Shown: positions 32,162-55,923 of the stretch, in pieces
Numbering within the stretch: position 1 is the stretch's first letter
Layout: each line of letters begins with the position of its first letter
Assembly: GCA_017516825.1 (NCBI GenBank)
Contig: JAFXBC010000068.1
Span: 10,950 to 74,949, forward strand
Direction: 5' to 3'
DNA from: Clostridia bacterium
Lineage (GTDB): Bacteria; Bacillota; Clostridia; Oscillospirales; CAG-382
Length of the DNA: 64,000 nucleotides
Translations under genes and position numbers: made by a program
Notes under the pieces: generated by a model
The model's database searches: none
The model's input: the letters and a program-made list of their open reading frames with translations, nothing else
Told to the model about the DNA's origin: nothing

Positions 32162-32262
32162 AAAATGCCTCCTTTTAAGGCCGCAGGTATCGCGGCTCTT
32201 TTTGATACGGTCATTATACCATATCATATGAAAAAACACAATAGGATTTTTTCAATTTTCAC

Positions 32263-32294: not shown

Positions 32295-32301
32295 CGAAAA
32301 C

Positions 32302-33384
32302 TCAATCATTGGGAGACCACTTACCCAGCAGGTAGTTTCTCAACTTGAAGTAATCCACCTTTTCGATCTTGCCGTTGCCGTCGATATCACTTCTGGAAAG
32401 CATTCCATCGTCGTAGTCGATCTCCTTGCCCAGCAGATAGGTCTTCAGCTTGAAGTAATCAAGCTTTCCGGCTTTACCGTCGCCGTCAATATCGCCAAAG
32501 ACGTAGGCGGGTTCTTCCTGCTCGAAATAGTAGCAAGCAAACATCCAGGCGTCATCCAGGTTACCGCCGATCCAGCCATCTGCACCGTACCAGCCCTGAA
32601 ACTTGCCAACGCCTTGGAAGATGATCATCAGGTCTTCGGTGAGAGGATAGTACGCAGTTTCATCGGTGCATGCCAGATATTCTCCCAAAGCTTGGTTGTA
32701 ATTGATCTTCTGTACGACGGTATCTCCCTCGTAGATCACGTCCTTCAGCTGACCGTACTCCTTTGCTGCGGCAAGACTCATCTGGAAGTCGGCAAGGCAG
32801 GCGTACAGCAGAGGACCGTTGGCACTACCCAGGTGATAATATCCGTCCGCGCCCTGAACAGCAATATCGCAAGTCTTATCGAAGGTATCCACGTACAGCA
32901 GATCATCCTCATTGCCCTCAAAGGTGAAGGGAACGGGGGTGAACTTGTTTTCGTAAACAGTCCACGGGATCTCAACAATGACGATCTCTTCCTTCTCAAC
33001 AGAGAGATTAACAGTAGCATCGTCGGTGATGACAGCAACCAGGATGGACTGGCCTACGGATCTGCATTCCCATTCGAAGCTGTTTTCCGTTACGGTTTCT
33101 GCAGTAGGCTCGATAGTGACCCACATACCGTTATAGCTGACGAGAGCCACCAAGCCGTTGGAGGCGGTGAAGATAAATTTGCCGATCTCGGTAGGTTCAA
33201 AGTAAAATACGGTGTATATGCAGTCGGGAACCATGTGGTATTCCTTGGTCCCTACGGAAAGACTTTCGTCAGACTGGACGTAGTTTTCCAAAGAGACCGG
33301 ATCCGCAGCCTCGGCGAGGACTGCCATGGGGGTAACGGTGAGGATCACAGCCATAAGCAGGCTAAGAAGTTTCTTCATGGTCAT
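32302..33384 (-). CDS. Secreted protein with an unassigned WxxxCxY domain and a C-terminal type I dockerin
   Basis: Sec signal (AVLA-EA); duplicated GDIDGDGK...DY..LK.YLLG and SDIDGNGK...DY..LR.YLLG dockerin repeats; paralog of 35918-37186. Confidence 0.85.
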   Translation of the reverse strand: MTMKKLLSLLMAVILTVTPMAVLAEAADPVSLENYVQSDESLSVGTKEYHMVPDCIYTVFYFEPTEIGKFIFTASNGLVALVSYNGMWVTIEPTAETVTENSFEWECRSVGQSILVAVITDDATVNLSVEKEEIVIVEIPWTVYENKFTPVPFTFEGNEDDLLYVDTFDKTCDIAVQGADGYYHLGSANGPLLYACLADFQMSLAAAKEYGQLKDVIYEGDTVVQKINYNQALGEYLACTDETAYYPLTEDLMIIFQGVGKFQGWYGADGWIGGNLDDAWMFACYYFEQEEPAYVFGDIDGDGKAGKLDYFKLKTYLLGKEIDYDDGMLSRSDIDGNGKIEKVDYFKLRNYLLGKWSPND

Positions 33385-33414
33385 GTTTGGGGCCTCCTGT
33401 TTTATAATTTAATT

Positions 33415-34593
33415 TTAGGAAAGGTATTCTCCGCTCCAGGTGATCACGGTGGCGGGGTACTTCCCTCGTCTGTTGGGAACGGCACCCACGTTGATGGACA
33501 ATTCATCCCCTGCCTGCACGCTGACGTCAACGTACAGTCTGCCTTGATCGTCCGTGATTTCCGCGTCGGAGGTGACCTGGGCGTAGCTGCGGTTGTTGGT
33601 AACCCTGATAAAGCTGTCAACGGTTGCGGAAAGGTAGAAGCGGATGACACCGTCCTCGGTGGCTGCGTAACGGTAGAAGTAACCCACATCGTTACCGGCT
33701 TCCAGAGAGACTACGTTGTCCTCCGTAATGGATTCCACCACGACGGCGTTGCCCATGGTTCCGAGAGGAAGCGCAAACTTCAAGTCAAAGGACTGCTCTC
33801 CGCTGCCGTTGTTTCCAATTTGGAAGAGAATGGCCTCGCTGGGCATTGCATTTTCCACATGGAAGGTCAAAACGCCATCCACAGGGGTGTAGGTCACGCC
33901 CTCGTAGATTACGTATACGTCCTCGGAAAGAATGGTCAGATCCATTCCGCCCACACGATAGATCCCGAAATACAGGGAAGAGCCGGACTGGATCTTCTTG
34001 GTGGTGACGGGCGTATTTTCATGAGGGATATAGAGATACGGATCCTCCTCCGTACCGGAGCCAAGAGGTTCCTCCTCTACGGGCTCGGAGGATTCCTCCG
34101 GCTCGGAAGGCTCGTCAGGTTCAGAGGGTTCTACGGGTTCTTCGGAGGATTCGTCGGGTTCAGAGGGCTCTACGGGTTCTTCGGAGGATTCGTCGGGCTC
34201 GGAGGGCTCTACGGGTTCCTCAGAGGATTCGTCGGGCTCGGAGGGCTCTACCGGCTCCTCGGAAGATTCATCGGGCTCGGAGGGCTCTACCGGCTCCTCG
34301 GAGGATTCGTCGGAAGGTTCTTCGGAAGGCTCAACAGAAGGCTCTTCGGAAGGTTCCTCGGAGGGTTCTTCGGAAGACTCGGCAGAAGGTTCCCGGGAAG
34401 GCTCGGAAGAAGAATCCGCAGAGGGTTCCTCGGAAGACGTATCTTCGGAGGAGGTTGCGGTGCTTTCCTCTTTGGAGACGGGATCTTCGCTTCCCTTGGG
34501 CGGAAGCTCTTCGGAGCATCCAACCAAGGCAAAGGAAAGAACGAAGGTCAGCAAAAGAGAAGCCGCGAGACAAAATAACAGTTTTTTGTTCAT
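33415..34593 (-). CDS. Lipoprotein with a long Glu/Pro/Ser stalk and C-terminal beta-sandwich domains
   Basis: Lipobox LVGC; ~150-aa E/P/S stalk; GSGTEEDPY motif; Y.ATEDG.I.F PPC-like strand. Confidence 0.85.
   Translation of the reverse strand: MNKKLLFCLAASLLLTFVLSFALVGCSEELPPKGSEDPVSKEESTATSSEDTSSEEPSADSSSEPSREPSAESSEEPSEEPSEEPSVEPSEEPSDESSEEPVEPSEPDESSEEPVEPSEPDESSEEPVEPSEPDESSEEPVEPSEPDESSEEPVEPSEPDEPSEPEESSEPVEEEPLGSGTEEDPYLYIPHENTPVTTKKIQSGSSLYFGIYRVGGMDLTILSEDVYVIYEGVTYTPVDGVLTFHVENAMPSEAILFQIGNNGSGEQSFDLKFALPLGTMGNAVVVESITEDNVVSLEAGNDVGYFYRYAATEDGVIRFYLSATVDSFIRVTNNRSYAQVTSDAEITDDQGRLYVDVSVQAGDELSINVGAVPNRRGKYPATVITWSGEYLS
34112..34312. repeat. 39-bp coding tandem repeat, about 5 copies (SSEEPVEPSEPDE)
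   Basis: Units such as GGAGGATTCGTCGGGCTCGGAGGGCTCTACGGGTTCCTC with synonymous variation. Confidence 0.92.
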
Positions 34594-34595
34594 AA

Positions 34596-35036
34596 TCAGT
34601 TACCCTTGGTCAAGGTCAAGGTATATTCGGTGGCTCCGTACTCAAGATGGATCTCAGCTTCGCCCTCGTAGGTGTAACCCTCGGGGAGAGACAGCACGGA
34701 AAGCTTATAGCCATCGGTGATCTCCGCCTCGAAAACGGCAACGCCGTTCTCATCGCTCATTGCGAACACACAGGATTCCTTGCAGATCTGCACGTAAACG
34801 CCAGAAACAGGGTTGCCGTCCTGATCCACAACGGTAACGGAGAACTTAGCCGCTTCCGGCAGAGAAGCTTCGGTGGAGGCTTCCGCAGAAGTTTCGGAAG
34901 AAGTCTCTGCAACGCTCTCGGCAGAGGATTCTATGGGAGTGGAGGTCTCGGTCTGCTCGGCGCAAGCCGCCAGGCAAAGAAGCATGGTCAAGCCCAGAAC
35001 AAGCGCAAGAAGTCTTTTGGTGAGTTTCATATTCAT
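34596..35036 (-). CDS. Small lipoprotein with a prealbumin/carboxypeptidase-regulatory-like domain and CxxxC
   Basis: Lipobox LAAC; S/E/T linker; FSVTVVDQDGNPVSGV.VQICKESC...SDENG.A.F...LPEGY. Confidence 0.85.
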   Translation of the reverse strand: MNMKLTKRLLALVLGLTMLLCLAACAEQTETSTPIESSAESVAETSSETSAEASTEASLPEAAKFSVTVVDQDGNPVSGVYVQICKESCVFAMSDENGVAVFEAEITDGYKLSVLSLPEGYTYEGEAEIHLEYGATEYTLTLTKGN

Positions 35037-35046
35037 TTTCTCCTTT

Positions 35047-35928
35047 TTAAGGATTCATTTCTTCCATGGTTTGGTACGTTTTCTGCACGTAGTTGTCGGA
35101 AGTGACAAAGTCGAAAAGCTTTGCGAAGGGTTCGGGGGTGGTAATTGCTCCCACGTGCACCAAGCAGATCATACCGTAGCGGTCAACAACCACCGTGGTG
35201 GGATAAGCACGGAGATTCATGGCCGTCTGCCAGAAGGGGTCTGCAGAAGCTACCGGGAAGGTCAGCGCCAACTGCTCCGCATAGGCGGAGACGGTGGTGT
35301 CGGTGCCGTCGTAGGGATTGATGGCGATGACCTCCAGACGATCCTTATATTCCCCGTAGGCCTGTTCCAGATAAGGAAACTCCATACGGCAAGGGCCGCA
35401 ACCGATGAACCAGAAATTCAGCACAACGGCCTTCTTTTCCGTGAGAAGGTCAGCGATGGAAAGCTGTGTGCCGTCGGTACAGGTGATGTGGAAATCGGGA
35501 ATAATATCTCCCAATCGAAGGGAAAGGTCGGATGTGTCCGTGACAAAATAGGGAGCGGTCTTTACCTTCACCACGGTGTCTTTTTCGGTGATGGGGTAAT
35601 ACTTATCCGTAACATAGCCCTGCTTTTCCAGGTAGATCACGGCAACGTAGGGATTGGATCCTTCCGCGGTAAAGGAAAGCTTCCCTTCCCTGTCGGTCAT
35701 GGCGGCATATACAAGGTCGGTGAGGGATGAATCCTCAAAAACCTTGACCATAACGCCGTCTATGGCCATACCGCCTTCCGTTTGGAAGGTGAGGGTGTAA
35801 TCCATGGGAACGCTTTCCGCCGAAGGGGCTTGGCTTTCCTCTGCGTGACCTTGACAGCCTGCCAAAGACAGGACCAGGCAGATCAATGCAACCTGCAGGG
35901 AGAGCAATCGTTTGCCATTATTCCACAT
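35047..35928 (-). CDS. TlpA/ResA-like thiol-disulfide oxidoreductase lipoprotein (CGPC)
   Basis: Lipobox LAGC; prealbumin-like domain; PDF...DG, VVLNFWFIGCGPCRMEFP and AYPTT.VVD cis-Pro loop. Confidence 0.9.
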   Translation of the reverse strand: MWNNGKRLLSLQVALICLVLSLAGCQGHAEESQAPSAESVPMDYTLTFQTEGGMAIDGVMVKVFEDSSLTDLVYAAMTDREGKLSFTAEGSNPYVAVIYLEKQGYVTDKYYPITEKDTVVKVKTAPYFVTDTSDLSLRLGDIIPDFHITCTDGTQLSIADLLTEKKAVVLNFWFIGCGPCRMEFPYLEQAYGEYKDRLEVIAINPYDGTDTTVSAYAEQLALTFPVASADPFWQTAMNLRAYPTTVVVDRYGMICLVHVGAITTPEPFAKLFDFVTSDNYVQKTYQTMEEMNP

Positions 35929-37186
35929 AGCAGCACATCAGCAACCAAGCGATATCGTGATTAATACCGGGCTCGGGGTTGCCGTCCAGATCAACAAACA
36001 GGTACGCACGGCTTTCGGGATCCCACCAACCCTGGTAATCACCATGCTGTTGTACAATATACTTCAGATCCTCGGTCAGGGGGTATACACCCATGGCTTC
36101 GTCGGCACAGGCGATGTATTCCATGAGACATTCGGAATAGGTTTCTTTTCTGTCGAAGTTGCCTTCCTCATCGTAGAAATACTTGGTAACGCCGGTATGC
36201 TCCAGGATGGTCTGGTAGGAATCCATATACTCGCTGTCCTCGGAAAGGCGCATCAGAACCAAAGGCCCGTCAGCGGAATCCAGATGGTAGAAGCCGTCGG
36301 TTTCGTTGTACACCAGGGTATATTCCTTGGTGAAATCGAATTCCTTCAAGGTAGTACCTGCGGGAAGCTGATATGCCTCGGGAGCTTTTTCTGCCTTATA
36401 AACAGTCCAGGGCTCATCCTCGATGGTCTTGATGGGATCGCCGATGCGGCGGATACCAAAGATGCAAGAGGTCTCGATATCTGCATCCACACCAAGCACC
36501 AGCACGTTGGTGCCACCTTCGCCGCTTCCGATCATGGAAGCTTTGATGGATACGGTGAACACGTTATCGGTGACGGTTGCAACACTGTTTTCCATCACGT
36601 AATGCGGAGAACCGTAGTAGCCGACGGTTGCTTTGGTCTCTCCGATCAGAGAGAACTCAAAGTTACCGGCAACGGTGGGAGTAAACAGGAAGTAGTTCCG
36701 AACGCCGGGGGTGAGCTCTACGTAGGTGGTTCCGATCCCTAAAGGATACGTCTCGATATCAGAAGAACCTACGGCGATGACCTGAGCCTCCGCAGTGATC
36801 CTGCCGCAGAGAGTCACTTCCGCAGAAGTGACCTCCGCAGTTACAGTGGTTTTTTCGTAATAATAGTTTTCTTCTCCATCGGAGAATGCAAGAGAAATCT
36901 CGTAATCCCCGGCAGTAAGGCTTTTGCTTGCAACGCCGTTTGCGTCACAAGGCTGCATGGCAACACGCTCACCGTTCTGCAAGAACTGAACGGCTACACC
37001 TGCTGTGCAGGGATCGCCGAACGCATCCTTAACGGTGACGGTGTAGGTAAGCTCGCCTGCGGGAACGGAGGAGTCTCCGTCGGAGGTCTCTCCTGCAGAG
37101 GAGGAGCAAGCCGCCAGAAGCATAGCTACGGTCAGCAGTGCGATCAAGAGGTAAGTTTTTACGGTCTTATAGATCATGGTGTTCAC
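35918..37186 (-). CDS. Lipoprotein with a prealbumin-like domain and the unassigned WxxxCxY domain
   Basis: Lipobox LAAC; shares PWTVY, DG[YF]YHL.SA.GPL, EY.AC.DE, YPLTEDL, QGW and AW...C.Y with 32302-33384. Confidence 0.85.
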   Translation of the reverse strand: MNTMIYKTVKTYLLIALLTVAMLLAACSSSAGETSDGDSSVPAGELTYTVTVKDAFGDPCTAGVAVQFLQNGERVAMQPCDANGVASKSLTAGDYEISLAFSDGEENYYYEKTTVTAEVTSAEVTLCGRITAEAQVIAVGSSDIETYPLGIGTTYVELTPGVRNYFLFTPTVAGNFEFSLIGETKATVGYYGSPHYVMENSVATVTDNVFTVSIKASMIGSGEGGTNVLVLGVDADIETSCIFGIRRIGDPIKTIEDEPWTVYKAEKAPEAYQLPAGTTLKEFDFTKEYTLVYNETDGFYHLDSADGPLVLMRLSEDSEYMDSYQTILEHTGVTKYFYDEEGNFDRKETYSECLMEYIACADEAMGVYPLTEDLKYIVQQHGDYQGWWDPESRAYLFVDLDGNPEPGINHDIAWLLMCCYVE

Positions 37187-37192
37187 CCGTTA

Positions 37193-39982
37193 TCAATCGT
37201 TGGCGCCCAGATAATCGTAATAGTAGCAGAGCTTCAGCCAAGAATTCTCTACACCGGCGAAGGTGTATTTATCCATGAGAAGCTGAAGCATCTCAGCAAG
37301 CCGTTGATCTACTGCCACGCATCCGTTACGCTCGGTATTTTCGGAATCATCGATCTTATCCAGATAGGTACGCATTTCCTCGGTGAGGTCGCCGCCCTTG
37401 CCGTGATATCTGCCGGCAAAGACGTCCTCCAACTGGTAGTTGATTGCGTTTTGATCGTACTCATCTCCCCATTTTTCTCTGAGATAAGCATCGGTCTTTT
37501 CGATATCGTTATCGTTTTGCTTCAGGTAGGAAAGAATCTCGGCATCGGTCTCGGATTTGCTGAAATCGAAGCCGCCCATCTCGATCATCTCGGTGATAGA
37601 GTGACTGAATACGCTGGTCATAGAGGTGAAATCCGCATAGATCAGACTTCCGTCAGCGGAATCATACCAATAACCGTCTTTCAATTCCGGCTTGATACCG
37701 CCGGTAATGATATCGTACATGGTGTCGCCGGTGGCATCACCGTCGTAGGTGAAGTACCCGGGAGCGGCGGCACGGAAGAGCCACAGCTCTTCTGCGATAT
37801 ACTCAACGTCATAGTAAATAACGCCGGTAGCGTAAACGTCCCAGAAAGCCATATTGATATAGTAAGGCTTGCCCGCTTCCATATAGTAGACCATGGAAAC
37901 GTTAACGGTATCGGTATACATACGTTCGTCGTGCTCGTAGGTATAAATGATATCGCCGTTGCTGTCAAAGATCCAGGAGTCGATGCCGTCTTTGTATTCG
38001 CTTCTGGAGGTAAAACGGTATACCCCGGATCTTTCGGGAATGAATTCCGCAAACATACCTCTGGGGATGATCGCTCTGTCGTAGTAGAAATAGTTGGTCT
38101 CAACGTTCTTACCCAGGGTTGCGTCCAGTGCGCTTTCGGGGCAAAGACCGATGATGGGATCCTGAAGCTGAGTAGCGGTGGGACCGTACGCCACGAAGTA
38201 CTTACAGATCTTCAGCCATTCGTTCTCGGTGCCGTCAAAGCCGGCCACCTCGGCAACCTGCTTGAGCATTTCAGCAAGCTCTTTGTTTACGGTACAGATG
38301 CCGTTCAAGGAAGCGTTGGAAGCATAGGAGAAGTATTTCACCATGTTCTTCCCTTCCTTGTCGTAGAGGCTGACGTCGTCCTTATCTGCCAGACCCTCGT
38401 AGACGATCTGGTAAACGGACATTTCCTCGGAGAAGGAAGTGTAGCCCATAAGGTCTGCCAACAGCAGGGGGCCGTCTGCCTTGCCTACGTGGTAGTAGCC
38501 GTCCTTTTCGTTATAGACGATATCCACGTAAGAATAGGTCTCGCCGTCCTCGGTGGAGCCTGCGGGACGGGGCAGATAGGTATCCACGTCGATTTCGGAA
38601 GCATCCACGGCGCGGAAATTATTGATGTAAACGGTGTCGTCACCCTCGGAGGTATCGCTATCCTTGACAAAGCAAAGAGCGATCTCGTAGGTGCCGTCTT
38701 CCTCTGCAACGCAGGGGTAGCAGGACTGCCAGGTCTCGGTCTCCCCTACGCCGGAGATCTGGAACACGTCCTCGTCGTTGACGATGACGTACAGGATATC
38801 GCAAAGGCGCTCGGAGGAGATGAGGTAGTCGAAGCCAACCGCCTGTCCTTTTTTCATGGTGACGTCGGCGTAGAGAATGGCGTAGGAGGAATCGACGCCG
38901 GTGTTGGAGGCGTAAAGTGCCTTCTTGCCGTTCTTTTCCGTAGCGATGAAGGGCCAGATATACTGAGCGTTTTCATCCTCGGTCTCGGGACGGTAGGTAA
39001 CATCGATATCGCCCTTGTTGATGAGAGCAGAAATGTTCTCGGAGGAATCCATGGTGTAGTTGGGAAGCACCTGGGTAGCCAGATCGCCGATGCCGCCTGT
39101 GCAGACCTTCTGCTTATAAACGTCCGCAAGGAAATGGTCGAAGGCGGACAGGAAGGGACGCTTGCTGGTGATAGCACCTGCCTCCACAACGCTGATCATA
39201 CCGTAACGGTCGATGAACACGGAGGTAGGATAAGCCTTAATGCCAAATACGTTTGCCCAAGAAGTGGGACACTTTGCCATGGGGAAATCAAGCTCGTATT
39301 CCGCCTTGAAGTTCTTCACAGCCGTTTCGTTGTCCTCCGGATAGGGGTTCAAAGCGATGATCTCGATCTGATCCTTATACTCTCCGTAAAGGGTGTTCAT
39401 CAGCGGGAACTCCGTTACACACCAGCTGCAGGTGGTATACCAGAAGTTCAAGATCACCAGTTTTTTGGTCTCTAAAACCTTGGAAAGAGTAAGCTCTTCT
39501 CCGTCGGAGGTAGTGACGGTGAAATCGTACATGATATCCCCGATCCCAAGGGTAGCGGCGGACAGATCCTCATCGTTCACCAAAGAGGAGGTGAGGACGA
39601 TACTTGCGGAGGTGCCGGAGAAGCCGTAGTAGCTGTCAACGGAGTAGCCCTTTGCAACCCCCGTGAGAACGATGGCGTAGTCCTTGCTCTGGGGCAAGGT
39701 AAAGGATACGTCACCGTTTGCGTCGGTCTTGGCAAAGTCCACCATATCGGCAAGGGAACCGTCTGCGTAGATATACACGTCGGTTTCGGACATTGCCATG
39801 CCGCCGGCTGTCTCGATATGGACGGTATAGGTAGCGGAGCCGCCTGCAGGCGCGCTCTCCTCGGAGCTTGTGTCGCTGGTGGTTCCGCTGTCACCCGAGC
39901 AGGATGCCAACAGAGGGAGACAGATCGCCAAAAGCAGAAGCAATGCGATCATCCCGTGCTTTCTGTAGATTCTTCTTTTCAT
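37193..39982 (-). CDS. Large multidomain lipoprotein: prealbumin-like domain, TlpA redoxin (CSWC), two WxxxCxY domains
   Basis: Lipobox LASC; VILNFWYTTCSWCVTEFP; AYPTSVFID; two internal repeats ending ENEWLKICKY and ENSWLKLCYY. ATG 39982 with AAGGA RBS. Confidence 0.88.
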   Translation of the reverse strand: MKRRIYRKHGMIALLLLLAICLPLLASCSGDSGTTSDTSSEESAPAGGSATYTVHIETAGGMAMSETDVYIYADGSLADMVDFAKTDANGDVSFTLPQSKDYAIVLTGVAKGYSVDSYYGFSGTSASIVLTSSLVNDEDLSAATLGIGDIMYDFTVTTSDGEELTLSKVLETKKLVILNFWYTTCSWCVTEFPLMNTLYGEYKDQIEIIALNPYPEDNETAVKNFKAEYELDFPMAKCPTSWANVFGIKAYPTSVFIDRYGMISVVEAGAITSKRPFLSAFDHFLADVYKQKVCTGGIGDLATQVLPNYTMDSSENISALINKGDIDVTYRPETEDENAQYIWPFIATEKNGKKALYASNTGVDSSYAILYADVTMKKGQAVGFDYLISSERLCDILYVIVNDEDVFQISGVGETETWQSCYPCVAEEDGTYEIALCFVKDSDTSEGDDTVYINNFRAVDASEIDVDTYLPRPAGSTEDGETYSYVDIVYNEKDGYYHVGKADGPLLLADLMGYTSFSEEMSVYQIVYEGLADKDDVSLYDKEGKNMVKYFSYASNASLNGICTVNKELAEMLKQVAEVAGFDGTENEWLKICKYFVAYGPTATQLQDPIIGLCPESALDATLGKNVETNYFYYDRAIIPRGMFAEFIPERSGVYRFTSRSEYKDGIDSWIFDSNGDIIYTYEHDERMYTDTVNVSMVYYMEAGKPYYINMAFWDVYATGVIYYDVEYIAEELWLFRAAAPGYFTYDGDATGDTMYDIITGGIKPELKDGYWYDSADGSLIYADFTSMTSVFSHSITEMIEMGGFDFSKSETDAEILSYLKQNDNDIEKTDAYLREKWGDEYDQNAINYQLEDVFAGRYHGKGGDLTEEMRTYLDKIDDSENTERNGCVAVDQRLAEMLQLLMDKYTFAGVENSWLKLCYYYDYLGAND

Positions 39983-40058
39983 TCTTAGGTTATTCCTTTC
40001 GTAGCCCGCTGGGGCGGGCGGTCTATATGGATTTTGTGTGCGAAGCCGCAAAATCCGA

Positions 40059-40370: not shown

Positions 40371-41372
40371 TTACTCGTTCAGCAAATGGCAGGCGGCACA
40401 GTGGCCGTTGCCGTAATCTTTGTATTCCGGCGTTACCTCTTTGCAAATCTCCTTTGCGTGGGGGCAACGGGTGTGGAAGCGGCAACCCTTGGGCGGGTTG
40501 GCGGGAGACGGGATATCACCGCTTAGGATGATGCGGTTCATTTTGACGTCGGGATCGGGATAAGGAATGGCGGAGAACAGGGCCTGGGTGTAGGGGTGCA
40601 AGGGGTTTGCGAAGATATCCTCCTTGGTGCCGAACTCCACCATGGAGCCAAGGTACATCACGCCGATCTTATCGGAAATGAACTTGACCACGGAAAGGTC
40701 GTGGGAAATGAACACGTAGGTGAGATCCATCTCCTGCTGGAGACGCTTCAAAAGATTGATGATCTGGGCCTGGATGGAAACGTCCAGGGCGGAAACCGGC
40801 TCGTCACAGATGACAAGCTTGGGGTTGACGGAAAGGGCGCGTGCGATACAGATACGCTGGCGCTGTCCGCCGGAGAATTCGTGGGGGTAGCGCTCGTAAT
40901 AGTAGGAACGCAGACCGCACTTATCCATGAGATCCAGAACGTACTCCTTCACCTGATCCTTGGGAACGATGTTATGTACCTCCACAGGCTCGGAAAGGAT
41001 GCCGCCCACGGTGCTTCTGGGAGGCAAGGAGGAGTAGGGGTCCTGGAAGATGATCTGCATCTTCTTGCGGATCTCCCGCATTTGGGAAGAGGTGTAATCG
41101 GTGATGTCCTGCCCTTCGAAGAAGATACGCCCGGAGGTGGGCTGGTGGAGCTTGAGAATGGCTCTGCCCAGGGTGGTCTTACCGCAGCCGGATTCGCCGA
41201 CGATGCCCAGTGTCTCCCCTGCTTTCAGGGAGAAGGACACGTCGTCAACGGCGATAAGCTCGCGGGTGACCTTGCCGGTGATGGTCTTCTTGAGGGGGAA
41301 GCACTTCCGCAAATTGTGAACCTCCAAAAGGTTGTCACTTGCGGGGGTAACGTTCTTCTGTTCTTCAGCCAT
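40371..41372 (-). CDS. oppF: Oligopeptide ABC transporter ATPase OppF
   Basis: GESGCGKTT, FQDPYSSL, FSGGQRQR, DEPVSALD, HPYT and the C-terminal Cys cluster. Confidence 0.93.
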   Translation of the reverse strand: MAEEQKNVTPASDNLLEVHNLRKCFPLKKTITGKVTRELIAVDDVSFSLKAGETLGIVGESGCGKTTLGRAILKLHQPTSGRIFFEGQDITDYTSSQMREIRKKMQIIFQDPYSSLPPRSTVGGILSEPVEVHNIVPKDQVKEYVLDLMDKCGLRSYYYERYPHEFSGGQRQRICIARALSVNPKLVICDEPVSALDVSIQAQIINLLKRLQQEMDLTYVFISHDLSVVKFISDKIGVMYLGSMVEFGTKEDIFANPLHPYTQALFSAIPYPDPDVKMNRIILSGDIPSPANPPKGCRFHTRCPHAKEICKEVTPEYKDYGNGHCAACHLLNE

Positions 41373-42513
41373 TGTTCTGTTCCTCCCCGTATAAGTGGCA
41401 AGCTACGTAATGGGTGGGGCTGACCTGAATCATCCCCGGATACTCCCCTGCACACTTTTTGGTACAAGAGGAGCATCTCTCACGGAAGTAGCAATAGTTG
41501 GGCATATTGATGGGGTTGGGCACGTTCCCGGGGATGTTGAACAGCGTGTCGCTGTCGGAATCCAGGGTGGGCTTGGATTTCTGCAAGCCGATGGTATAGG
41601 GATGCATGGGATTATGGAAGATCTCCTGCACGGTGCCCTGCTCGATGACTCTGCCCGCGTACATGACCACCACGTAATCCGCCATCTCGGCTATGATGCC
41701 AAGGTCGTGGGTGATGAGCATGATGGAGCCGTCGATCTTCTCCTTCAGATCACGGAGCAGATCCAGGATCTGCGCCTGGATTGTCACGTCCAAGGCGGTG
41801 GTGGGCTCGTCGGCAATGATGAGGCGGGGATCCGCCGCAAGAGCCATGGAGATCATCACACGCTGACGCATACCGCCGGAAAGCTCGTGAGGGAAGGAAT
41901 TGTATACACGCTCGGGGATGGCGATGCCCACAAGATTCAGCATCTCGATGGAACGGGCCTTCGCCGTCTCCTTGGTGGCCTTGGGATTGTTGATGAAGGT
42001 GACCTCATCCAGCTGCTGACCGATGGTGAACACGGGATTCAGAGAGGTCATGGGCTCCTGGAAGATCATAGCGATCTGGTTGCCACGGATCTTGTGGATG
42101 TCCCGCATGGGCATTTTTGCCACGTCGTACACCTTCTCGGTGCCGTCGGCTTCCTTTGCGTTGAAGCGGATGGAGCCGGAGTAGATCTGGCCTGCAGGGC
42201 CCTGGATCAGACGCATGACGGACATACTGGTCACAGACTTGCCGCAACCGGACTCCCCTACCACGCCTACGGTGGCGTGCTTGGGGATGTTGAAGGAAAC
42301 GCCGTTAACGGCCTTGACCACGCCCTGCTCGGTGAAGAAATAGGTGTGGAGGTCGTCGATCTCCAGAATATTGGAGTCGTCCTTCATTTCGGTGAGATAT
42401 TCCGATTCGGGAGCCTTGCGATTCTTGTAGGCCTCCAGCTTTTTGATGATCTTCTTGTTTTCTTTGGCAATGGCGCGGACTTCCTTGCCCGAAAGGTGAT
42501 TTGTTTTGCTCAT
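41365..42513 (-). CDS. oppD: Oligopeptide ABC transporter ATPase OppD
   Basis: [34 protein letters not shown] and HPYT. Confidence 0.93.
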
Positions 42514-42516
42514 AGC

Positions 42517-43560
42517 TTATCTCCTCGCTTTCGGGTCAAGGGCATCTCTCAAGCCGTCTCCCACGAAGTTGAAGCCCAGCACGGCAATGACGATGCAAAT
42601 ACCTGCGGGAACCCAGACGTTGAGATGGTTTTGGAGAATGTCCTGGTTGGTGGAAATGATGTTGATCATGGTACCCCAAGCGGCATAAGGCGCTTTGACA
42701 CCCAAATTCAGATAGGACAAAGTTGCCTCGTAGAGGATCATGCTGCCCAGGCTCAAGCTCATTTGCACGATGAGCTGGGGCATGACGTTGGGAACCAGGT
42801 GCTTGAAGATCTTACGGGGAGCGGAGTAACCCATAGCTTCCGCCGCCACCATGTATTCCTGTTCGCGGAGAGAAAGGATCTGTCCGCGGACCAGACGTGC
42901 GGTTCCGGGCCAGGAGATAAAGGTGAGGTAGATCATCAGCAGGTAGATGCGGTATTTGGCATCAATGCCGGAGGCGTCCAGAATTGTACTGATGATCAGC
43001 AGGATCGGAATGCCGGGAAGGCAGATCAGCACGTCGCATACACGCATGATGACGTTATCCACCACCCCGCCGAAGAAGCCTGCAATGCCGCCCATGAACA
43101 CGCCGAGAATGGTGATCAGGAACACGGCGATGAAGCTGACGATCAGGGAGATCCTGCCGCCGTACATCAGACGAACGAAGATGTCGTAGCCCTCGTTGTC
43201 GGTACCCAGGATATGCTCTGCGGAGGGAGGCGCCAGGAAGTTGTCCTTCAGGCTCTTCTCGGTGGTCTGGTGAAGGGTGTATTCCACGCCGTTGACGGTA
43301 TAAGTAGTCTCTGCGGTGGCGTACTCCGTTTTGCCGCTTTCGTCCAGCTCAATCTCACCCCACTGGGTATAGATCAGCGGGCCTACGAAGCTGAACAGGA
43401 ACAATCCCACGATCATGATCAGGCCGATGATGCTCAGCCTGGAGCGGAAGAAACGGCGAACCACCATGCGGGTGGGAGACATCAATCGGACGTTTTGATC
43501 CAGAGGGGTGTCGGTATCTTCGGTTCCTTCGGGAATGTTGTTTTTCAGTTGTTCTTCCAC
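42517..43560 (-). CDS. oppC: Oligopeptide ABC transporter permease OppC
   Basis: HILGTD.G.D...RL.YGGR.SL, ARLVRGQ.LS.RE.EY..AA, HLVPN and GDGLRDALDP. Confidence 0.93.
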   Translation of the reverse strand: MEEQLKNNIPEGTEDTDTPLDQNVRLMSPTRMVVRRFFRSRLSIIGLIMIVGLFLFSFVGPLIYTQWGEIELDESGKTEYATAETTYTVNGVEYTLHQTTEKSLKDNFLAPPSAEHILGTDNEGYDIFVRLMYGGRISLIVSFIAVFLITILGVFMGGIAGFFGGVVDNVIMRVCDVLICLPGIPILLIISTILDASGIDAKYRIYLLMIYLTFISWPGTARLVRGQILSLREQEYMVAAEAMGYSAPRKIFKHLVPNVMPQLIVQMSLSLGSMILYEATLSYLNLGVKAPYAAWGTMINIISTNQDILQNHLNVWVPAGICIVIAVLGFNFVGDGLRDALDPKARR

Positions 43561-43572
43561 AAAGATACCTCC

Positions 43573-44565
43573 TTACTCCAATTTAACTCTGGGGTCTACG
43601 ATGCCGTACATCAAGTCGGCCAGCAATACGCCGATGACGGAAAGCAGTGCGAGGAACATATTATAACCCATGATAAAGGGGATATCGCCGCGGTTCATGG
43701 CGTCCAGGGCGATGTTACCGATACCGGGAAGGTTGAACACCTGCTCCGTGATGATGGCACCGGAGAACAGGGAGGGCAGAAGCCCTGCCAGAGAGGTGAC
43801 CATGGGGATAAGGGTGTTGCGGAAGGCGTGCTTGTTGATGACAACACTTTCCTTGAGACCTTTTGCACGGGCGGTACGGATGTAGTCGGAGTTCATGACC
43901 TCCAGCATATTGGTTCTGGTCATACGCATTCTGGCACCGATGGACAGGATCACGATGGTGAGAATGGGGATGAACATATGCCGTGCGTAGTCCAACAGGA
44001 GGGAAAGACCCGCCTGGGACACGGTGGCATCCAGCAGGCCCGAAGCCGGGAACCATCCCAGCTTCAGGGCGAGGAAATCCTTGAGCACCTGCCCAAAGAA
44101 GAAGGAGGGCAGGGAGATGCCGATCATAACCAGGACGGTGACCACGTAGTCGCGGATGCTGTACTGGTGGGTGGCGGCGGTGATACCAAGGGGGATCGCG
44201 ATGAGGAATTCGAAAATGGTAGCAATCAAGGCGATGATAAAGGACACGCCCATATGCTCGAAAATAACGTCTGCGACGGGAATGCCGTGGACGAAGCTGG
44301 TACCCAGGTCAAAGGTAGCCAGGGCGCCCAGCCAGCTGAAGTAACCCTTCAGGATCCCCATAAAGCTGTTGTCTCCCAGGCCGTACATTTCGTACATGGC
44401 GTTCACCGTTTCCTCGCTGACCGTTGCGCCGCCTTGGTTGATGGCGTCGATCTTGCTCTGGATAAAATCCACGGGCATGAGTCGGATCAGGAAGTAGATG
44501 ATCATGGAGACACCCAGCAGAATGAGGACTGCCATGGCAAGTCTTTTAATGATGTATTTCAGCAT
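43573..44565 (-). CDS. oppB: Oligopeptide ABC transporter permease OppB
   Basis: DLG.S, DYIRTARAKGL, HAFRN, E.VF..PGIG and DPR. Confidence 0.93.
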   Translation of the reverse strand: MLKYIIKRLAMAVLILLGVSMIIYFLIRLMPVDFIQSKIDAINQGGATVSEETVNAMYEMYGLGDNSFMGILKGYFSWLGALATFDLGTSFVHGIPVADVIFEHMGVSFIIALIATIFEFLIAIPLGITAATHQYSIRDYVVTVLVMIGISLPSFFFGQVLKDFLALKLGWFPASGLLDATVSQAGLSLLLDYARHMFIPILTIVILSIGARMRMTRTNMLEVMNSDYIRTARAKGLKESVVINKHAFRNTLIPMVTSLAGLLPSLFSGAIITEQVFNLPGIGNIALDAMNRGDIPFIMGYNMFLALLSVIGVLLADLMYGIVDPRVKLE

Positions 44566-44579
44566 GGGTCACACCCGCT

Positions 44580-47162
44580 TTACTGAGCAAATTCGATTTC
44601 CCAAATACGATCCAAGGGAGAGGAATAGGGGTTCATTTCAGCCTCGGTAGGAAGGCTGGAGGAAGCGATCACGTTGGAGTTATAGGCGTAGAGAACGCTT
44701 CTCTGGTATACGGGAAGCTCGATAGCCAGGTCAAGAACGTGCTCCATTGCGCTCTGGTAGAGCTGGGTACGCTTACCCTGGTCGTTGGTCTCACGTGCAG
44801 CGTCGATCAGATCGCTGAGCTCGTTGAGGATCTTGGTCTCCTCTGCGCTACCGCTGGTCTTCAGGTGGTTATAACCCCAGGCCAGGGTGCTGGTTGCGGT
44901 GGAATCCTTGTGGTAGACCTGGTACATATCGGGGTCAAGTGCGGAGGACCATGCTGCTGCCCAGACCTCAAGAGAACCGGTATTGATCTTGGTAAGGGCC
45001 TGGGTGTCGCAAACTACCTCTACGTCCCAGCCCAGATCGTTCAGCAGAGCGGCGGCATCGCGGAACACCTTATAGGTGGGGTGATCCTGCAAGCTGGAGC
45101 CTGCGATGGTGAACTTCACGGAGAGCTGAGAGTCGCCTGCGCTGACGCCTGCGGCCTGCATATACTTCTCGATGTTGGCAACTGCGATATCCTGGTTCCA
45201 GGTACCCAGAGGAGGATAGTCAAAGTTGTTGTCGTTGGCGGCCGCACCCTTGGGGTAAGCCCAGCTTACCTTGGACATGGGCCAGAAGATCTGCGTCGCG
45301 GTACCTGCACGGTAGTAGTCCAAAGCAAGGGAGGTGTTCATGGCGCACATGATGGCCTTACGCAGGTTGATGTCGTTGATCTTCGCCGCGTTGACACCCA
45401 CGTAACCGTAGCCAAGCTGATCGGTGGTGAGGGTCACCATACCCTTGGAAGCCAGAGCCTCCAGCTTCTCGTAGTTGTTGGTGGTAAGAGAGGGAGAGAT
45501 GTAGTGAACGTTGCCCTCCTCCAATGCGGCGATGGCGTTGGCGGAAGAAACGATCTGGTAACGGATCTTGGGGATCTTGGCATTTTCGATGCCTGCACCA
45601 ACGGTGTTGAAGTTCTCGTTGGCCTTGAAGTATACAACGTTGTTGGAATAGAACTGGCTTTCGCCGGGGTTATCGTCGTTGTTGGCGTTGGTCACCTTGT
45701 AAGCACCTGCACCCATAGGGAGCTTGATGTTACGGGTGGACTGGATCACGTCGGTCATGAAGTCGAAGCTTGCGAACTCAACGCCAAACTTGTTGTTGGC
45801 AATATCCATTGCAACGGAGCTTCCCTCGCCGTAATAGTGCTGGGGAGCTACGGTGAGTGCGAAGTTCCAGATGGCCTTGGGGTCAACGCCGTCGATGGTG
45901 ATCTGGAGAACGTCGTACTCGGAAGCGTTGGTAACGGTACCGTCGGCATTGTGGCCGGAGGCGATGGTGTAATCGGTGCCGTTCACGGTGATGGTGGAGC
46001 CTGCCTTATCGGTATGACCCAGAGAGACGATGCCGGAGATGTGGTCAACTGCCAAGGAGCCGTCGTCGGAGACGTTCTCGTGGAGGATGACTTCCTTTGC
46101 TTTTGCGGTGAACTCGGTGTTCAGGGTATTTGCGGTTGCCCAATACTGCAGAATGATATTCAGCTCTCTTGCGATCTTGTCGTTATAGATATAGTCGATG
46201 GCCGCCTCCTTGGTGGTGATGGAGGAGGGGTATGCAGGGGTCATCTTCTCGATGGTGGTACGGTCGATCTTACCGTCTGCGCCCTCGGCGTACTCCACTT
46301 CCACGTAGCCCTCGGAATACATGAAGCAGAAGATCTCGTTCTTGAATTCCTCGTAGTTGCTGAAGGGCTTGTCGATGTAGGACTCCTGGGCAGAGAGGTA
46401 GTCAGTCTCAAGCTCTTCCTTGAACAGCTTCAGAGCGTACTCGTAGTCAGCCAGCAGGTTCTTGTTGGAGACCTCTGCGGGGTTGGTGGAGATAGCGGTC
46501 TTATAGCCGTTGCTGACGGAGTGAGCGTTGATGGCGGCCTTCATTGCCTCGTAGCCAACCTCCTTGGTGGAGGAAGCCTTGACCTGGGAGTTGAACAGGT
46601 TGATCAGCTCGTTCAGTCTGGCAGCGGCTCTGGAAGCGGCCTGAGAGGTGATCTGACTGTCGCTGTCATCGGAGGAGGAGCCGACAGTTTGGGTTCTGTA
46701 CTCGGAAAGGCCCAGGATATCGGTAGAATACAGGGTGTTGGAGCCGGTATAAACGGGATCCAGATATACGTAGTAGTTAAACAGCACGTCCTCCATGGTC
46801 AGAGGGTGACCGTCGGAGAATTTGATGCCGTTCTTGAGAACGAAGGTATAGGTTACGGTGCCGTCGCTGTTTTCAACGATGTCATAATCCTTGGTAACCA
46901 CCGCCTCGTTGTCGCCGTAGGCAACCTGCACTTCCCCGTTTACGTACTTGGAAGCAAGCATGCCGATCTGGGTCATAGCGACGATGGTGCCGTCATTGGC
47001 GGAGGTGGAGAAGAACGGGTTGAACAAGCCGTCCAGCTGTTCCGTCATGATAACGAAAGCGTCTACGCCGGCGCCGCCGTTGTCGGAACAACCTGTGAAT
47101 GCAGTCAGGATGCCCATGCAAAGAACAACGCACAGGACCAGTGAAAGGAGTCTCTTTTTCAT
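44580..47162 (-). CDS. oppA: Oligopeptide-binding lipoprotein OppA (SBP family 5), unusually long
   Basis: Lipobox FTGC; DGLFNPFF, YTF.LK.GIKFSDG.PLT.EDV.F, P.GAGAYK, LRKAI..A and LPVYQR; 860 aa. Confidence 0.9.
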   Translation of the reverse strand: MKKRLLSLVLCVVLCMGILTAFTGCSDNGGAGVDAFVIMTEQLDGLFNPFFSTSANDGTIVAMTQIGMLASKYVNGEVQVAYGDNEAVVTKDYDIVENSDGTVTYTFVLKNGIKFSDGHPLTMEDVLFNYYVYLDPVYTGSNTLYSTDILGLSEYRTQTVGSSSDDSDSQITSQAASRAAARLNELINLFNSQVKASSTKEVGYEAMKAAINAHSVSNGYKTAISTNPAEVSNKNLLADYEYALKLFKEELETDYLSAQESYIDKPFSNYEEFKNEIFCFMYSEGYVEVEYAEGADGKIDRTTIEKMTPAYPSSITTKEAAIDYIYNDKIARELNIILQYWATANTLNTEFTAKAKEVILHENVSDDGSLAVDHISGIVSLGHTDKAGSTITVNGTDYTIASGHNADGTVTNASEYDVLQITIDGVDPKAIWNFALTVAPQHYYGEGSSVAMDIANNKFGVEFASFDFMTDVIQSTRNIKLPMGAGAYKVTNANNDDNPGESQFYSNNVVYFKANENFNTVGAGIENAKIPKIRYQIVSSANAIAALEEGNVHYISPSLTTNNYEKLEALASKGMVTLTTDQLGYGYVGVNAAKINDINLRKAIMCAMNTSLALDYYRAGTATQIFWPMSKVSWAYPKGAAANDNNFDYPPLGTWNQDIAVANIEKYMQAAGVSAGDSQLSVKFTIAGSSLQDHPTYKVFRDAAALLNDLGWDVEVVCDTQALTKINTGSLEVWAAAWSSALDPDMYQVYHKDSTATSTLAWGYNHLKTSGSAEETKILNELSDLIDAARETNDQGKRTQLYQSAMEHVLDLAIELPVYQRSVLYAYNSNVIASSSLPTEAEMNPYSSPLDRIWEIEFAQ

Positions 47163-55725: not shown

Positions 55726-55771
55726 CGGGACCTCTTTTCTGATTTGGGCATAATACGACACATACATATTC

Positions 55772-55805
55772 ATTATATAATACAATAATTTTTATAAAAA
55801 TGCAA
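55772..55805 (-). promoter_or_regulatory. Putative sigmaA promoter of the protease operon with an overlapping palindrome
   Basis: Minus strand TTGCAT (55805-55800), 17 bp, TATTAT (55782-55777); palindrome ATTTTTATAAAAAT at 55788-55801. Confidence 0.55.
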
Positions 55806-55891: not shown

Positions 55892-55923
55892 CTTTTGCAT
55901 GAATGAACGTTGGGAGCTTCTAT

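Follow-up and report, generated by a model that had tools for sequence, protein, structure and literature searches.

Three minus-strand genes of the window, the whole stretch of 64,000 nucleotides analysed here, which comes from an uncultured bacterium of the animal gut, carry four homologous copies of a module of 140–200 amino acids whose hallmarks are a DGYYH..GP motif and a C-terminal WxxxCxY. The four copies are paralogous instances of a single extracytoplasmic alpha/beta domain, previously uncatalogued. Its core measures approximately 140 amino acids and reaches approximately 200 with insertions; the first hallmark forms a beta-hairpin and the second a C-terminal helix-strand unit (W-x3-C-x-Y). 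The module probably helps the cell to open up and digest disulfide-bonded extracellular proteins, because it lies among enzymes that break disulfides, a giant protease of the cell surface and, frequently, an importer of peptides. We tentatively favour the explanation that it is a non-catalytic partner domain of a disulfide-reducing, protein-digesting apparatus at the cell surface.

The module copies and their host proteins

The large lipoprotein P0001 is encoded by an ORF of 952 amino acids (37193..40051, minus strand), with a likely start at Met24 (position 39982) that gives 929 amino acids, the same length as in a 96%-identical homologue. It consists, in order, of an Ig-like domain, a TlpA/ResA-like redoxin domain (residues 165–297, CSWC), a region without assignment (300–485), module copy 1, a sandwich-like spacer and module copy 2. 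Copy 1 (38168..38587, minus strand; residues 489–628) has its DGYYH at 517, Cys586 in NGICTV and Cys616 in WLKICKY. Copy 2 (37196..37789, minus strand; residues 755–952) has Cys911 in NGCVAV and Cys942 in WLKLCYY, contains a long helical insertion, and reads DGYWY where the others have DGYYH. The lipoprotein P0002 (35918..37186, minus strand; ORF of 422 amino acids, 419 in homologues) is built from an Ig-like domain, a PPC-like beta-sandwich and the module (35921..36418, minus strand; residues 257–422), which has DGFYH at 297 together with Cys353, Cys360, Cys418 and Cys419. P0003 (32302..33384, minus strand) is a secreted protein of 360 amino acids with a signal peptide, a sandwich, the module (32503..32991, minus strand; residues 132–294; DGYYH at 180, Cys239 in EYLAC, Cys284 in WMFACYY) and a type I dockerin (297–353). 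The latter scores 31.7 bits against a Dockerin_1 cut-off of 22.9 and is one of 17 dockerin matches in the genome. The Pfam cohesin model has no match in this genome. This model may overlook divergent cohesins, and among 14 control genomes it matches just 2.

The envelopes of the module in P0001, P0002 and P0003 were set by HMM. BLASTP aligns P0002 with P0003 across 284 amino acids (E 6e-22) and copy 1 of P0001 with P0002 (E 1.6e-7), and finds no significant similarity of copy 2 to the other copies (E 0.57 or worse). Four orthologue groups, each built separately from 80 other loci, were compared by hhalign. The P0002 type (lipo422) and the dockerin type were paired at a probability of 100% (1.7e-39), and copy 1 was paired with copy 2 at 97.4% (1e-11), with lipo422 at 98.2% and with the dockerin type at 98.1%; weaker pairs were copy 2 with the dockerin type (89.4%) and with lipo422 (60.8%). 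Judged from these alignments, the similarity among the four copies exceeds chance by far. The initial annotation had described four copies of one module in three proteins, and this is borne out, with the motifs located where they had been claimed. Its limits also fit: WMFACYY of the 360-aa protein ends at position 32527, and the D that opens DGYYH of the 952-aa ORF lies at 38503.

A beta-sandwich had further been proposed ahead of most copies, which is borne out only in part. In the structural model of P0002 the sandwich spans residues 135–250 and resembles the collagenase pre-peptidase C-terminal domain. Foldseek with the whole P0002 model matched 5sv5 (probability 1.00, TMt 0.58, rmsd 4.2, 110 columns), and the sandwich also matched ColG 5iku at a probability of 1.00. 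The PPC model of Pfam gave no match at E<=0.1. In a database of four proteins, an HMM of the P0002 sandwich matched P0003 at 58–106 (domain E 4e-4) and P0004 at 302–358 (4e-3), and there was no match ahead of copy 2 of P0001 (0.45). The likeness to PPC or collagen-binding sandwiches (5sv5, 5iku) belongs to the spacer of P0002 and not to the module.

Three more minus-strand genes complete the cluster. TlpA293 (35047..35928) encodes a lipoprotein of 293 amino acids with an Ig-like domain and a TlpA/ResA-like redoxin domain (CGPC active site) and is without the module. Lipo146 (34596..35036) encodes a lipoprotein of 146 amino acids whose sole domain is Ig-like or CarboxypepD_reg-like. P0004, or lipo392 (33415..34593), encodes a lipoprotein of 392 amino acids with an acidic Pro/Glu/Ser repeat linker and a sandwich-like C-terminal half, and it too is without the module. 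Both lipo146 and P0004 are conserved in the cluster. By tblastn, the large redoxin, lipo422 and the module/dockerin protein each had a match at every one of 80 related loci, although at some loci the best match to the last falls within the lipo422 gene; the counts were 79 for TlpA293, 77 for lipo146 and 74 for lipo392. The number of module copies per locus is four in 53, three in 19, two in 5, one in 1 and five in 2. These 80 loci are not independent counts, because related genomes share their gene neighbourhood. The six-gene surface-protein cluster with four module copies recurs in many uncultured gut Clostridia.

Distribution, fold and cysteines of the module

The module forms a genuine family of narrow distribution. 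In a library of 1.84 billion it has 1107 representatives at a threshold of E<=0.001 and 571 when E<=1e-10 is required, and an even sample of the order has the module in 3 of 201 genomes. The source genome holds exactly four copies, all within this cluster; its other 16 dockerin matches are without the module, as are all its other surface proteins.

The module matches no catalogued family, and no match to a solved structure was found, in agreement with the earlier reading, which could not place it in a named family. In the whole proteins, neither Pfam nor NCBIfam matched the module region (E<=0.1), and a Pfam scan of 110 single module sequences (E<=0.01) gave no shared family, with one chance match to DUF4340 (0.0039). 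An AlphaFold2 model of the module by itself reached a pLDDT of 89.8 and a pTM of 0.85. Foldseek of this model against the PDB returned a best E of 1.6, and VIA-align against 48,161 chains peaked at Z 2.4 (rmsd 3.8 across 58 aligned residues). A second VIA comparison with the PDB found none of 96 chains at Z>=2, a missing match that is no proof of a new fold. A PDB profile search with the module yielded repeat-motif sums and one weak helical match, and nothing else. VanY was weakly suggested by a language model at 0.82, which is under the usable level; none of the 110 sequences has a VanY Pfam match.

Each window copy has, as had been noticed, an upstream Cys and a terminal Cys in WxxxCxY, but the upstream residues do not occupy equivalent columns of the family alignment: they fall in column 96 for P0002 and P0003, in column 106 for copy 1 and in column 105 for copy 2. 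The proposed Cys pair is only partly borne out across homologues. Among 238 complete domains the terminal Cys is nearly universal (232), whereas the upstream Cys is missing in a quarter of domains and differs in position among subfamilies (columns 105/106, or 89, 94, 96). No Cys is found at any usual upstream column in 59 of the 232 domains with a terminal Cys, and in 26 of them the terminal Cys is the sole one; the six domains without it still keep an upstream Cys in five cases. Modules of TlpA-fused proteins include 24 with a single Cys. Where columns 105, 106 and 136 lack Cys they are occupied by L, Y, V, I, S or T, substitutes that are typical of buried core positions. Among close orthologues of the large redoxin (loci of 50–70% identity), both Cys are fixed in copy 1 (70/71 and 71/71) and in copy 2 (74/74 each), and a Cys pair at the level of subfamilies is therefore possible. 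The strict conservation of two Cys in these copies would fit a redox role of the module at least as well as passive binding.

Redoxins, electron supply and genomic neighbourhood

Coupling of the module to TlpA, which the initial annotation had proposed from the direct fusion, stands firmly. A TlpA-like domain lies in the same chain as the module in 92 of the best 150 representatives, a gene order that includes two TlpA-type genes recurs in the 80 loci, and the module is found almost exclusively alongside TlpA-type genes. A fused form of 1368 amino acids (L019) unites redoxin, Ig and a C-terminal module in a single chain. The two redoxin domains score 55.1 and 58.8 bits with AhpC-TSA (cut-off 26) and 44.4 and 56.6 with Redoxin (cut-off 26.6), and C177, P179 and C180 are invariant across 66 orthologues. 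The redoxins are predicted to be extracytoplasmic and membrane-tethered from their signal sequences, which include a lipobox Cys (LASC, LAGC). They are comparable to TlpA, ResA, StoA and CcmG (DsbE), which are membrane-tethered thioredoxin folds with CxxC; the redoxin motifs here are CSWC, CGPC and CTPC. In contrast to those systems, which are supplied by CcdA or DsbD, the redoxins score 83.6 and 84.1 bits with the ResA model (NCBIfam NF002854), under its curated cut-off of 170, and DsbD_TM/CcdA (PF02683, one Pfam model) has no match in the source genome and matches in 10 of 14 control genomes. The absence of CcdA/DsbD is unproven, because the assembly is 91% complete. We know of no characterized TlpA, ResA, StoA or CcmG (DsbE) member that carries this module.

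The candidate electron supplier is a membrane protein of 495 amino acids (56684..58171, plus strand) that combines three CX3CP motifs with two of the ferredoxin-type 4Cys kind and ends in an additional predicted membrane helix and a TlpA-like domain (CTPC). The protein has a Fer4_5 match in Pfam, and its CX3CP motifs lie inside or beside predicted membrane helices; in these features it resembles the membrane Fe-S proteins of NapH/NosR type, from which it differs by the extra membrane helix and the terminal TlpA-like domain. Upstream lies the gene of a multi-pass membrane protein of 255 amino acids without a family (55903..56670, plus strand), a homologue of which occupies the equivalent position in 16 of the 80 related loci. 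Across the 201-genome sample of the order, the full-length Fe-S/TlpA fusion occurs in the three module-bearing genomes and in one 72%-complete genome; about ten other genomes possess just the Fe-S part, which in two of them is adjoined by a separate TlpA-like match.

An Opp-type ABC peptide importer lies on the minus strand (40371..47162) and comprises OppF (40371-41372), OppD (41365-42513), OppC (42517-43560), OppB (43573-44565) and a family-5 binding protein of 860 amino acids (44580-47162). Beyond it on the same strand is an S8 subtilase of 2415 amino acids (48538..55785) with PA, Fn3-like, Big_2 and BspA-type LRR domains, the architecture of a cell-envelope proteinase. A 70%-identical orthologue of this protease is found only in the three module-bearing genomes of the 201-genome sample, and in each of them the modules, the Fe-S/TlpA fusion and the S8 protease share one contig. 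Opp is seen at 23 of the 80 loci and the S8 unit at 17; among the 29 loci whose flanks of 10 kb are complete, 24 carry Opp or the S8 / Fe-S-TlpA unit at that distance or closer and 5 show neither there. No cytochrome c or sporulation context is seen in the neighbourhood. In lactococci, a very large S8 cell-envelope proteinase, PrtP, works with the Opp importer. Here too a huge S8 subtilase (PA, Fn3-like) stands beside Opp in one region; to our knowledge, the lactococcal system has neither thiol-disulfide reductases nor module-bearing surface proteins.

Possible roles of the module

Under the explanation that we favour, the TlpA domains would reduce disulfides, the S8 protease would cleave and Opp would take up the products, with the Fe-S/TlpA membrane protein supplying the reducing power. 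The module would serve for binding or assembly, keeping disulfide-bonded extracellular proteins or peptides, or the other cluster proteins, beside the CxxC sites. Its near-invariant terminal Cys would stay a thiol in this reducing setting and could belong to the core or engage in thiol-disulfide exchange. The sole hints of a site in the module are conserved residues (Asp, His and terminal Cys), which are as compatible with catalysis or metal binding as with a binding site.

It is possible, if rather doubtful, that the module is itself a redox client or relay, its terminal Cys, with a partner Cys in some subfamilies, cycling between thiol and disulfide or sulfenate and being recycled by TlpA; it could then trap the disulfides of substrates through thiol-disulfide exchange or work as a one-Cys reductase. 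The near-universal terminal Cys, the fixed pairs of copies 1 and 2, the frequent TlpA fusion and the Asp and His of DGYYH that are kept with Cys in three of four subfamilies all speak for such a role, but the shifting or missing partner, the single-Cys modules in TlpA-fused proteins, the core-like substitutes at the Cys columns and the replacement of His by Tyr in 90% of copy 2 orthologues argue against it. The core-like substitutes also fit a purely structural or anchoring domain, for example one for binding to cell wall, S-layer or scaffold, without a redox role and linked to TlpA merely through a common surface complex, which we regard as unlikely. The last module ends within 15 residues of the C-terminus in 113 of the best 150 representatives, spacer domains of sandwich or Ig-like type always precede the module, and the recurrent Pfam partners in 44 length-selected representatives are redoxin, Ig-like and dockerin only, redoxin being the sole enzyme. 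However, the module proteins are already anchored by lipid or dockerin, the other surface proteins of the genome do without the module, and its company is almost exclusively of TlpA type.

An unrecognised Cys-His-Asp hydrolase or a small metal site formed by Asp33, His37 and Cys136 (family columns) is improbable. Over 255 domains these residues rank among the best conserved (Asp 89%, His 78%, Cys 97%), and the His reaches 95–100% in three subfamilies; yet copy 2 has Tyr in its place, much of the remaining conservation concerns aromatic or Gly/Pro residues, as a structural core would show, no fold match to Cys hydrolases (papain-like, NlpC/P60, transglutaminase-like) or metalloproteins was obtained (a missing match, which is no proof), and the weak VanY lead stayed under the usable level. 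We give the least credence to surface oxidative-stress repair in which the module either repairs or is itself repaired. In Streptococcus pneumoniae, as far as the available part of the source describes it, Etrx1 and Etrx2, surface lipoproteins of the thioredoxin family, serve the methionine sulfoxide reductase MsrAB2, with electrons coming via CcdA1/2 (PMC3914529). Surface TlpA-like lipoproteins of a Gram-positive-type cell with a dedicated extracellular partner are a shared feature, but the partner described in that part is Msr (PMC3914529), whereas here it is a module of no catalogued family and the 91%-complete genome has no match to MsrA or MsrB (PF01625, PF01641) or to CcdA/DsbD. The electron route through CcdA (PMC3914529, same part) is here probably replaced by the Fe-S membrane protein fused to TlpA. 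Moreover, the cluster is accompanied by a protease and a peptide importer instead, and the host bacteria are gut anaerobes, going by the titles of their sequence records.

Gene cluster and the four copies of the module

Seven minus-strand ORFs are found at 31298–40051 of the window, and six of them form the cluster that carries the module, a recurring domain with a DGYYH..GP hairpin and a C-terminal WxxxCxY motif. From high to low coordinate these are the large redoxin P0001 (952 aa, 37193–40051), the lipoprotein lipo422 or P0002 (422 aa, 35918–37186), the redoxin lipoprotein TlpA293 (293 aa, 35047–35928), lipo146 (146 aa, 34596–35036), lipo392 or P0004 (392 aa, 33415–34593), and the module/dockerin protein P0003 (360 aa, 32302–33384). 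The seventh ORF (313 aa), at the lowest coordinates, is conserved only in the four nearest relatives. Judged from the translations, five of the cluster proteins start with a signal sequence and a lipobox Cys; the sixth, P0003, starts with a signal peptide of the ordinary kind. Pfam and NCBIfam place Ig-like or CarboxypepD_reg-like domains at the N-termini of cluster proteins, TlpA/ResA-like redoxins at residues 165–297 of P0001 (CSWC) and 140–263 of TlpA293 (CGPC), and a type I dockerin at the C-terminus of P0003; the module stretches of the window proteins receive no assignment from either database. P0004 carries a disordered repeat of the Pro/Thr type (Pfam PT repeat over part of the linker). 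In a phmmer search against PDB sequences, neither residues 300–485 of P0001 nor the C-terminal half of P0004 had a match below E 0.3. At residues of about 95–165 of P0004, an acidic 13-residue unit (EPVEPSEPDESSE-like) is found in five tandem copies, as a long linker after the lipobox. Open frames of 654–1063 aa also lie antisense on the plus strand (41395–44586, 32614–34578, and 37304–39475); they translate into low-complexity sequence and look like shadow ORFs of 54% G+C DNA, not genes.

The initial annotation had reported four copies of the module in three proteins; its motifs are where it placed them, 32527–38503 running from WMFACYY of P0003 to DGYYH of copy 1 in P0001, and BLASTP, HMM, and hhalign together bear out the recurrence. 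The HMM envelopes cover residues 489–628 and 755–952 of P0001 (copies 1 and 2), 257–422 of P0002, and 132–294 of P0003; the sandwich HMM lacks the strength to bear out the spacer ahead of copy 2. In BLASTP, P0002 and P0003 match over 284 aa including the pre-module sandwich (E 6e-22), copy 1 matches P0002 (E 1.6e-7) and P0003 (E about 1e-5), and copy 2 has no significant match to the other copies (E 0.57 or worse). A non-circular comparison was made for copy 2, in which segments from 80 other loci were sorted by their best match to the window copies, and each of the four groups was aligned separately and then compared with hhalign. The lipo422 and dockerin types pair at 100% (E 1.7e-39), copy 1 pairs with the lipo422 type at 98.2%, with the dockerin type at 98.1%, and with copy 2 at 97.4% (E 1e-11), and copy 2 pairs with the dockerin type at 89.4% and the lipo422 type at 60.8%. 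Based on these group comparisons, all four copies are judged homologous, copy 2 being the most diverged and tied in mainly through copy 1.

Family and predicted fold of the module

At E<=0.001, a search among proteins of similar length gave 1290 relatives of P0002, and the source-given names of the 120 listed are all "hypothetical protein". A search with the C-terminal half of P0001 gave 1574 relatives, mostly of about 930 aa, which are TlpA-family or redoxin-domain proteins where the source names them. A profile of the four window copies, as had been proposed at the outset, was run against 1.84 billion cluster representatives; 1107 of these pass E<=0.001, of which 571 reach E<=1e-10 and 34 reach E<=1e-30, the family representatives being counted at the 50% clustering level. 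Pfam was run on 44 of the best 150 listed representatives, a pick by length that mostly avoids the common 860–1040 aa class (7 of the 44 fall inside it); the recurrent partners of the module in this set are redoxin/AhpC-TSA (15 proteins), Ig-like, and dockerin domains (4 proteins), and no other enzyme domain stands beside it there. With a TlpA profile built from 66 TlpA293 orthologues, a TlpA-like domain is detected in the same chain as the module in 92 of the 150 listed representatives and is absent in 58; the coupling to TlpA suspected in the initial annotation holds. In 113 of the same 150 the last module ends 15 residues or less from the C-terminus.

The model of full P0002 (50 sequences, pLDDT 80.4) runs from a membrane anchor through an Ig-like domain and a second sandwich (residues 135–250) to the module, and its PDB matches cover only the two sandwiches, one of the matches being a pre-peptidase C-terminal domain (5sv5). 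Because the fold matches of the whole protein hit only these domains, the module was modelled separately, as copy 1 of P0001 with 110 module sequences of all four types (pLDDT 89.8, pTM 0.85). It opens with a beta-meander at the N-terminus, of which the DGYYH hairpin is part. Helices follow, then a short strand holding the upstream Cys of copy 1 (GIC Cys, Cys586) and a long helix; the conserved Trp is on a short helix after it, and the conserved terminal Cys opens the last strand. Run on this confident model, Foldseek returned no PDB chain below E 1.6. In VIA-align against 48,161 representative chains the highest Z was 2.4, where Z 7–8 is typical of models that lack a clear match, and none of the 96 Foldseek candidates was at Z>=2 when rescored. 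The module profile searched against PDB sequences gave only summed repeat-motif matches and one weak helical match. The former are the designed propellers Cake2-10, in which 8–9 per-repeat matches, each with an E in the hundreds, are summed over a resemblance in the hairpin motif DG..Y..s.dG.l that we do not read as homology; the latter, 2jpu/2q00 (E 5e-4, 59 columns), is isolated, weak, and without support from the fold search, and was taken as chance. In the ESM Atlas, VanY-type clusters scored 0.82, below the usable level, and a second query gave no usable match.

No Pfam family is shared at E<=0.01 among the 110 module sequences, and for the predicted model no relative is detectable among solved structures with these tools, although a missing match is not proof of a new fold. 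The description of the module as an unassigned extracytoplasmic domain therefore stands: it is real, conserved, and so far uncatalogued, and would be a new entry for domain catalogues with 1107 representatives. It is a new domain family, possibly with a new fold, and a solved structure could add a fold since a confident model finds no structural neighbour. The module is placed inside a new version of a known theme, that of extracytoplasmic thiol-disulfide oxidoreductase systems, of which Etrx1/2 are treated in PMC3914529 and StoA in PMC2665060. Our full-text literature search returned nothing on the module or on such a cluster, nor any paper that links proteins of the TlpA type to dockerins or cell-envelope proteinases in such bacteria; its matches were general work on TlpA, Etrx, StoA, and cellulosomes.

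Cysteines of the module and what they may mean

In total 255 domain instances, from the 150 listed representatives and the window proteins, were aligned to the family profile, and 238 complete domains were kept after 17 truncated ones were dropped. The terminal Cys (profile column 136) is present in 232 of the 238 and is as conserved as the Trp four residues earlier. The upstream Cys has no fixed column, being found at column 105 in 67 domains, at column 106 in 54, and at columns 89, 94, and 96 in 12–16%. Of the 232 domains with the terminal Cys, 59 have no Cys at the usual upstream columns and 26 have the terminal one as their sole Cys, and an upstream Cys is kept in 5 of the 6 domains that lack the terminal one. 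Since no upstream column is fixed and some domains have the terminal Cys only, there is no obligate Cys pair at the family level; even among TlpA-fused modules of the wider family, the combination of column 105/106 with 136 is found in only 102 of 168. Conservation is tighter across the 80 close loci, where copy 1 has the GIC Cys in 70/71 and the terminal Cys in 71/71, and copy 2 has both in 74/74. The lipo422 type keeps Cys353 in 88%, Cys418 in 92%, Cys419 in 95%, and Cys360 in only 42%, and the dockerin type keeps its terminal Cys in 100% and its upstream Cys in 62%. Thus the conserved pair claimed for every copy in the initial annotation is found within the subfamilies of copies 1 and 2, but not in the family, where the upstream Cys shifts or is absent.

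Such a distribution bears on the main rival to our reading, namely that the module is itself a redox-active client which acts through its near-invariant Cys. The pairs fixed in both copies of the large redoxin are what one would expect of a client, whereas two features speak against it: the upstream Cys in general changes position and is dispensable, and the residues that replace Cys in its columns (L, Y, V, F, I, S, or T) are core-like. Another reading would have the module hide a Cys-His-Asp or metal site; the His of DGYYH is kept in 100%, 95%, and 100% of three subfamilies and is Tyr in 90% of copy 2, and the Asp is likewise well kept. The module may also be a purely structural anchor. We prefer the reading in which the module would bind substrates of the TlpA-like reductases, or hold the apparatus together beside their CxxC sites.

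A patchy island and its proposed role

A pattern search with one genome per species gave 424 stretches encoding a P0002 relative. According to their record titles, the best 80 of these all come from metagenome-assembled genomes of uncultured Clostridia, Oscillospiraceae, Ruminococcus-like, and similar bacteria, and for many of them the source is the gut of goat, sheep, deer, buffalo, or yak. With the window proteins as tblastn queries, the large redoxin, lipo422, and the module/dockerin protein were matched in 80/80 loci (for the last, the top match of some loci is located in its paralogue, the lipo422 gene), TlpA293 in 79/80, lipo146 in 77/80, and lipo392 in 74/80; the window genes flanking the cluster were matched in only 4/80. 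Clustering of ORFs shows the usual order to be large redoxin, lipo422, TlpA293, lipo146, lipo392, and a final module protein of variable length, and there is a variant in which TlpA293-like, Ig, and module parts are fused into one protein of up to 1368 aa. In this longest fusion (L019:10708–14811, plus strand), a TlpA-like redoxin (residues 153–277), Ig-like domains, and a C-terminal module replace the separate genes. Exactly four module copies are found in 53 of the 80 loci, and the others have three (19 loci), two (5), one (1), or five (2), many of these loci being cut by contig ends. The module occurs almost only together with TlpA-like reductases, often fused to them, and no other feature marks this conserved surface cluster as specifically.

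On the same strand upstream of the cluster lie OppF, OppD, OppC, OppB, a family-5 binding protein (44580–47162), a 435-aa lipoprotein (47202–48509), and an S8 subtilase of 2415 aa (48538–55785) with PA, Fn3-like, and Big_2 domains and six BspA-type LRR_5 stretches, these three also on the minus strand. Divergent from the subtilase, on the plus strand, are a multi-pass membrane protein of 255 aa without a family and with a C-terminal CTEC (55903–56670) and a 495-aa Fe-S/TlpA membrane protein (56684–58171), which has three CX3CP motifs, two ferredoxin-type 4Cys motifs, a late membrane helix, and, after a Ser/Glu-rich linker, a C-terminal TlpA-like domain (CTPC). This 495-aa protein may be an electron conduit independent of CcdA; the own genome, 91% complete, has no Pfam match to DsbD_TM/CcdA, MsrA, or MsrB. 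At 860 aa the Opp binding protein is unusually long, its best SBP_bac_5 stretch covering residues 475–754 only and its N-terminal half being without assignment, and the 435-aa lipoprotein, located between the protease and this binding protein, has GY.F.GWY-like strands and no Pfam family. The own genome has 17 dockerin matches and, at 91% completeness, no match to the Pfam cohesin model, and its cohesins are either too divergent for the model or in the missing 9%.

Within the 80 loci, the Opp operon is upstream of the cluster in 23, and the genes directly downstream are the Fe-S/TlpA gene in 19, an S8 subtilase in 17, and in 16 the small membrane partner, a homologue of the 255-aa protein that adjoins the Fe-S/TlpA gene upstream, as in the window. 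Where the full 10-kb flanks are available, Opp or the S8/Fe-S-TlpA unit is present in 24/29 loci and neither in 5/29. The module was found in 3 genomes of an even set of 201 from the order, that is the own genome (2.12 Mb, 91% complete, these four copies only), G007, and G095, and in 0/4 other genomes of the same genus in that sample; 400 further genomes sampled across the phylum gave one marginal match (E 4e-4). The full-length Fe-S/TlpA fusion is present in 4 of the 201, three with the module and one 72%-complete genome, and its Fe-S part alone in about ten others, two of them with an adjoining separate TlpA-like match. An S8 orthologue of roughly 2400 aa and 70% identity is confined to the three module-bearing genomes among the 201, in each of which modules, fusion, and orthologue share one contig; seven other genomes of the order have S8 proteins at 34–39% identity. 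The module island (window about 32300–58200) is patchy: not found in the four other genomes of its genus, the module turns up, beside neighbours 58–70% identical, in a member of another family of the order. This spread suggests an island that moves, or is frequently lost, in one piece.

The island also carries a giant surface protease, a candidate Fe-S/TlpA conduit, and often a peptide importer. Since module, TlpA reductases, protease, conduit, and importer co-occur, we infer that the island may break the disulfides of extracellular proteins or peptides, which would then be cut and imported; the role proposed for the module is drawn from context only. The cluster could alternatively be read as an oxidative-stress repair system. 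A more far-reaching proposal, which we consider rather unlikely, is that the module has a new fold in which the Cys and the DGYYH Asp/His form a new extracellular redox or catalytic center recycled by the TlpAs, themselves fed by the CcdA-independent Fe-S conduit, so that an undescribed machine would export reducing power and break external disulfides before proteolysis and peptide uptake. Disulfides are abundant in many storage proteins and protease inhibitors of plants, and if the cluster does reduce external disulfides before digestion, it would add a new step to the way proteins are degraded in the herbivore hindgut. It also points to an export route for reducing equivalents without CcdA/DsbD. 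In one metatranscriptome (X20), short contigs 90–99% alike hold parts of four cluster genes, which does not by itself show transcription, just as the uncovered parts carry no information, and near-identical DNA is found in animal gut and faecal metagenomes from several studies.
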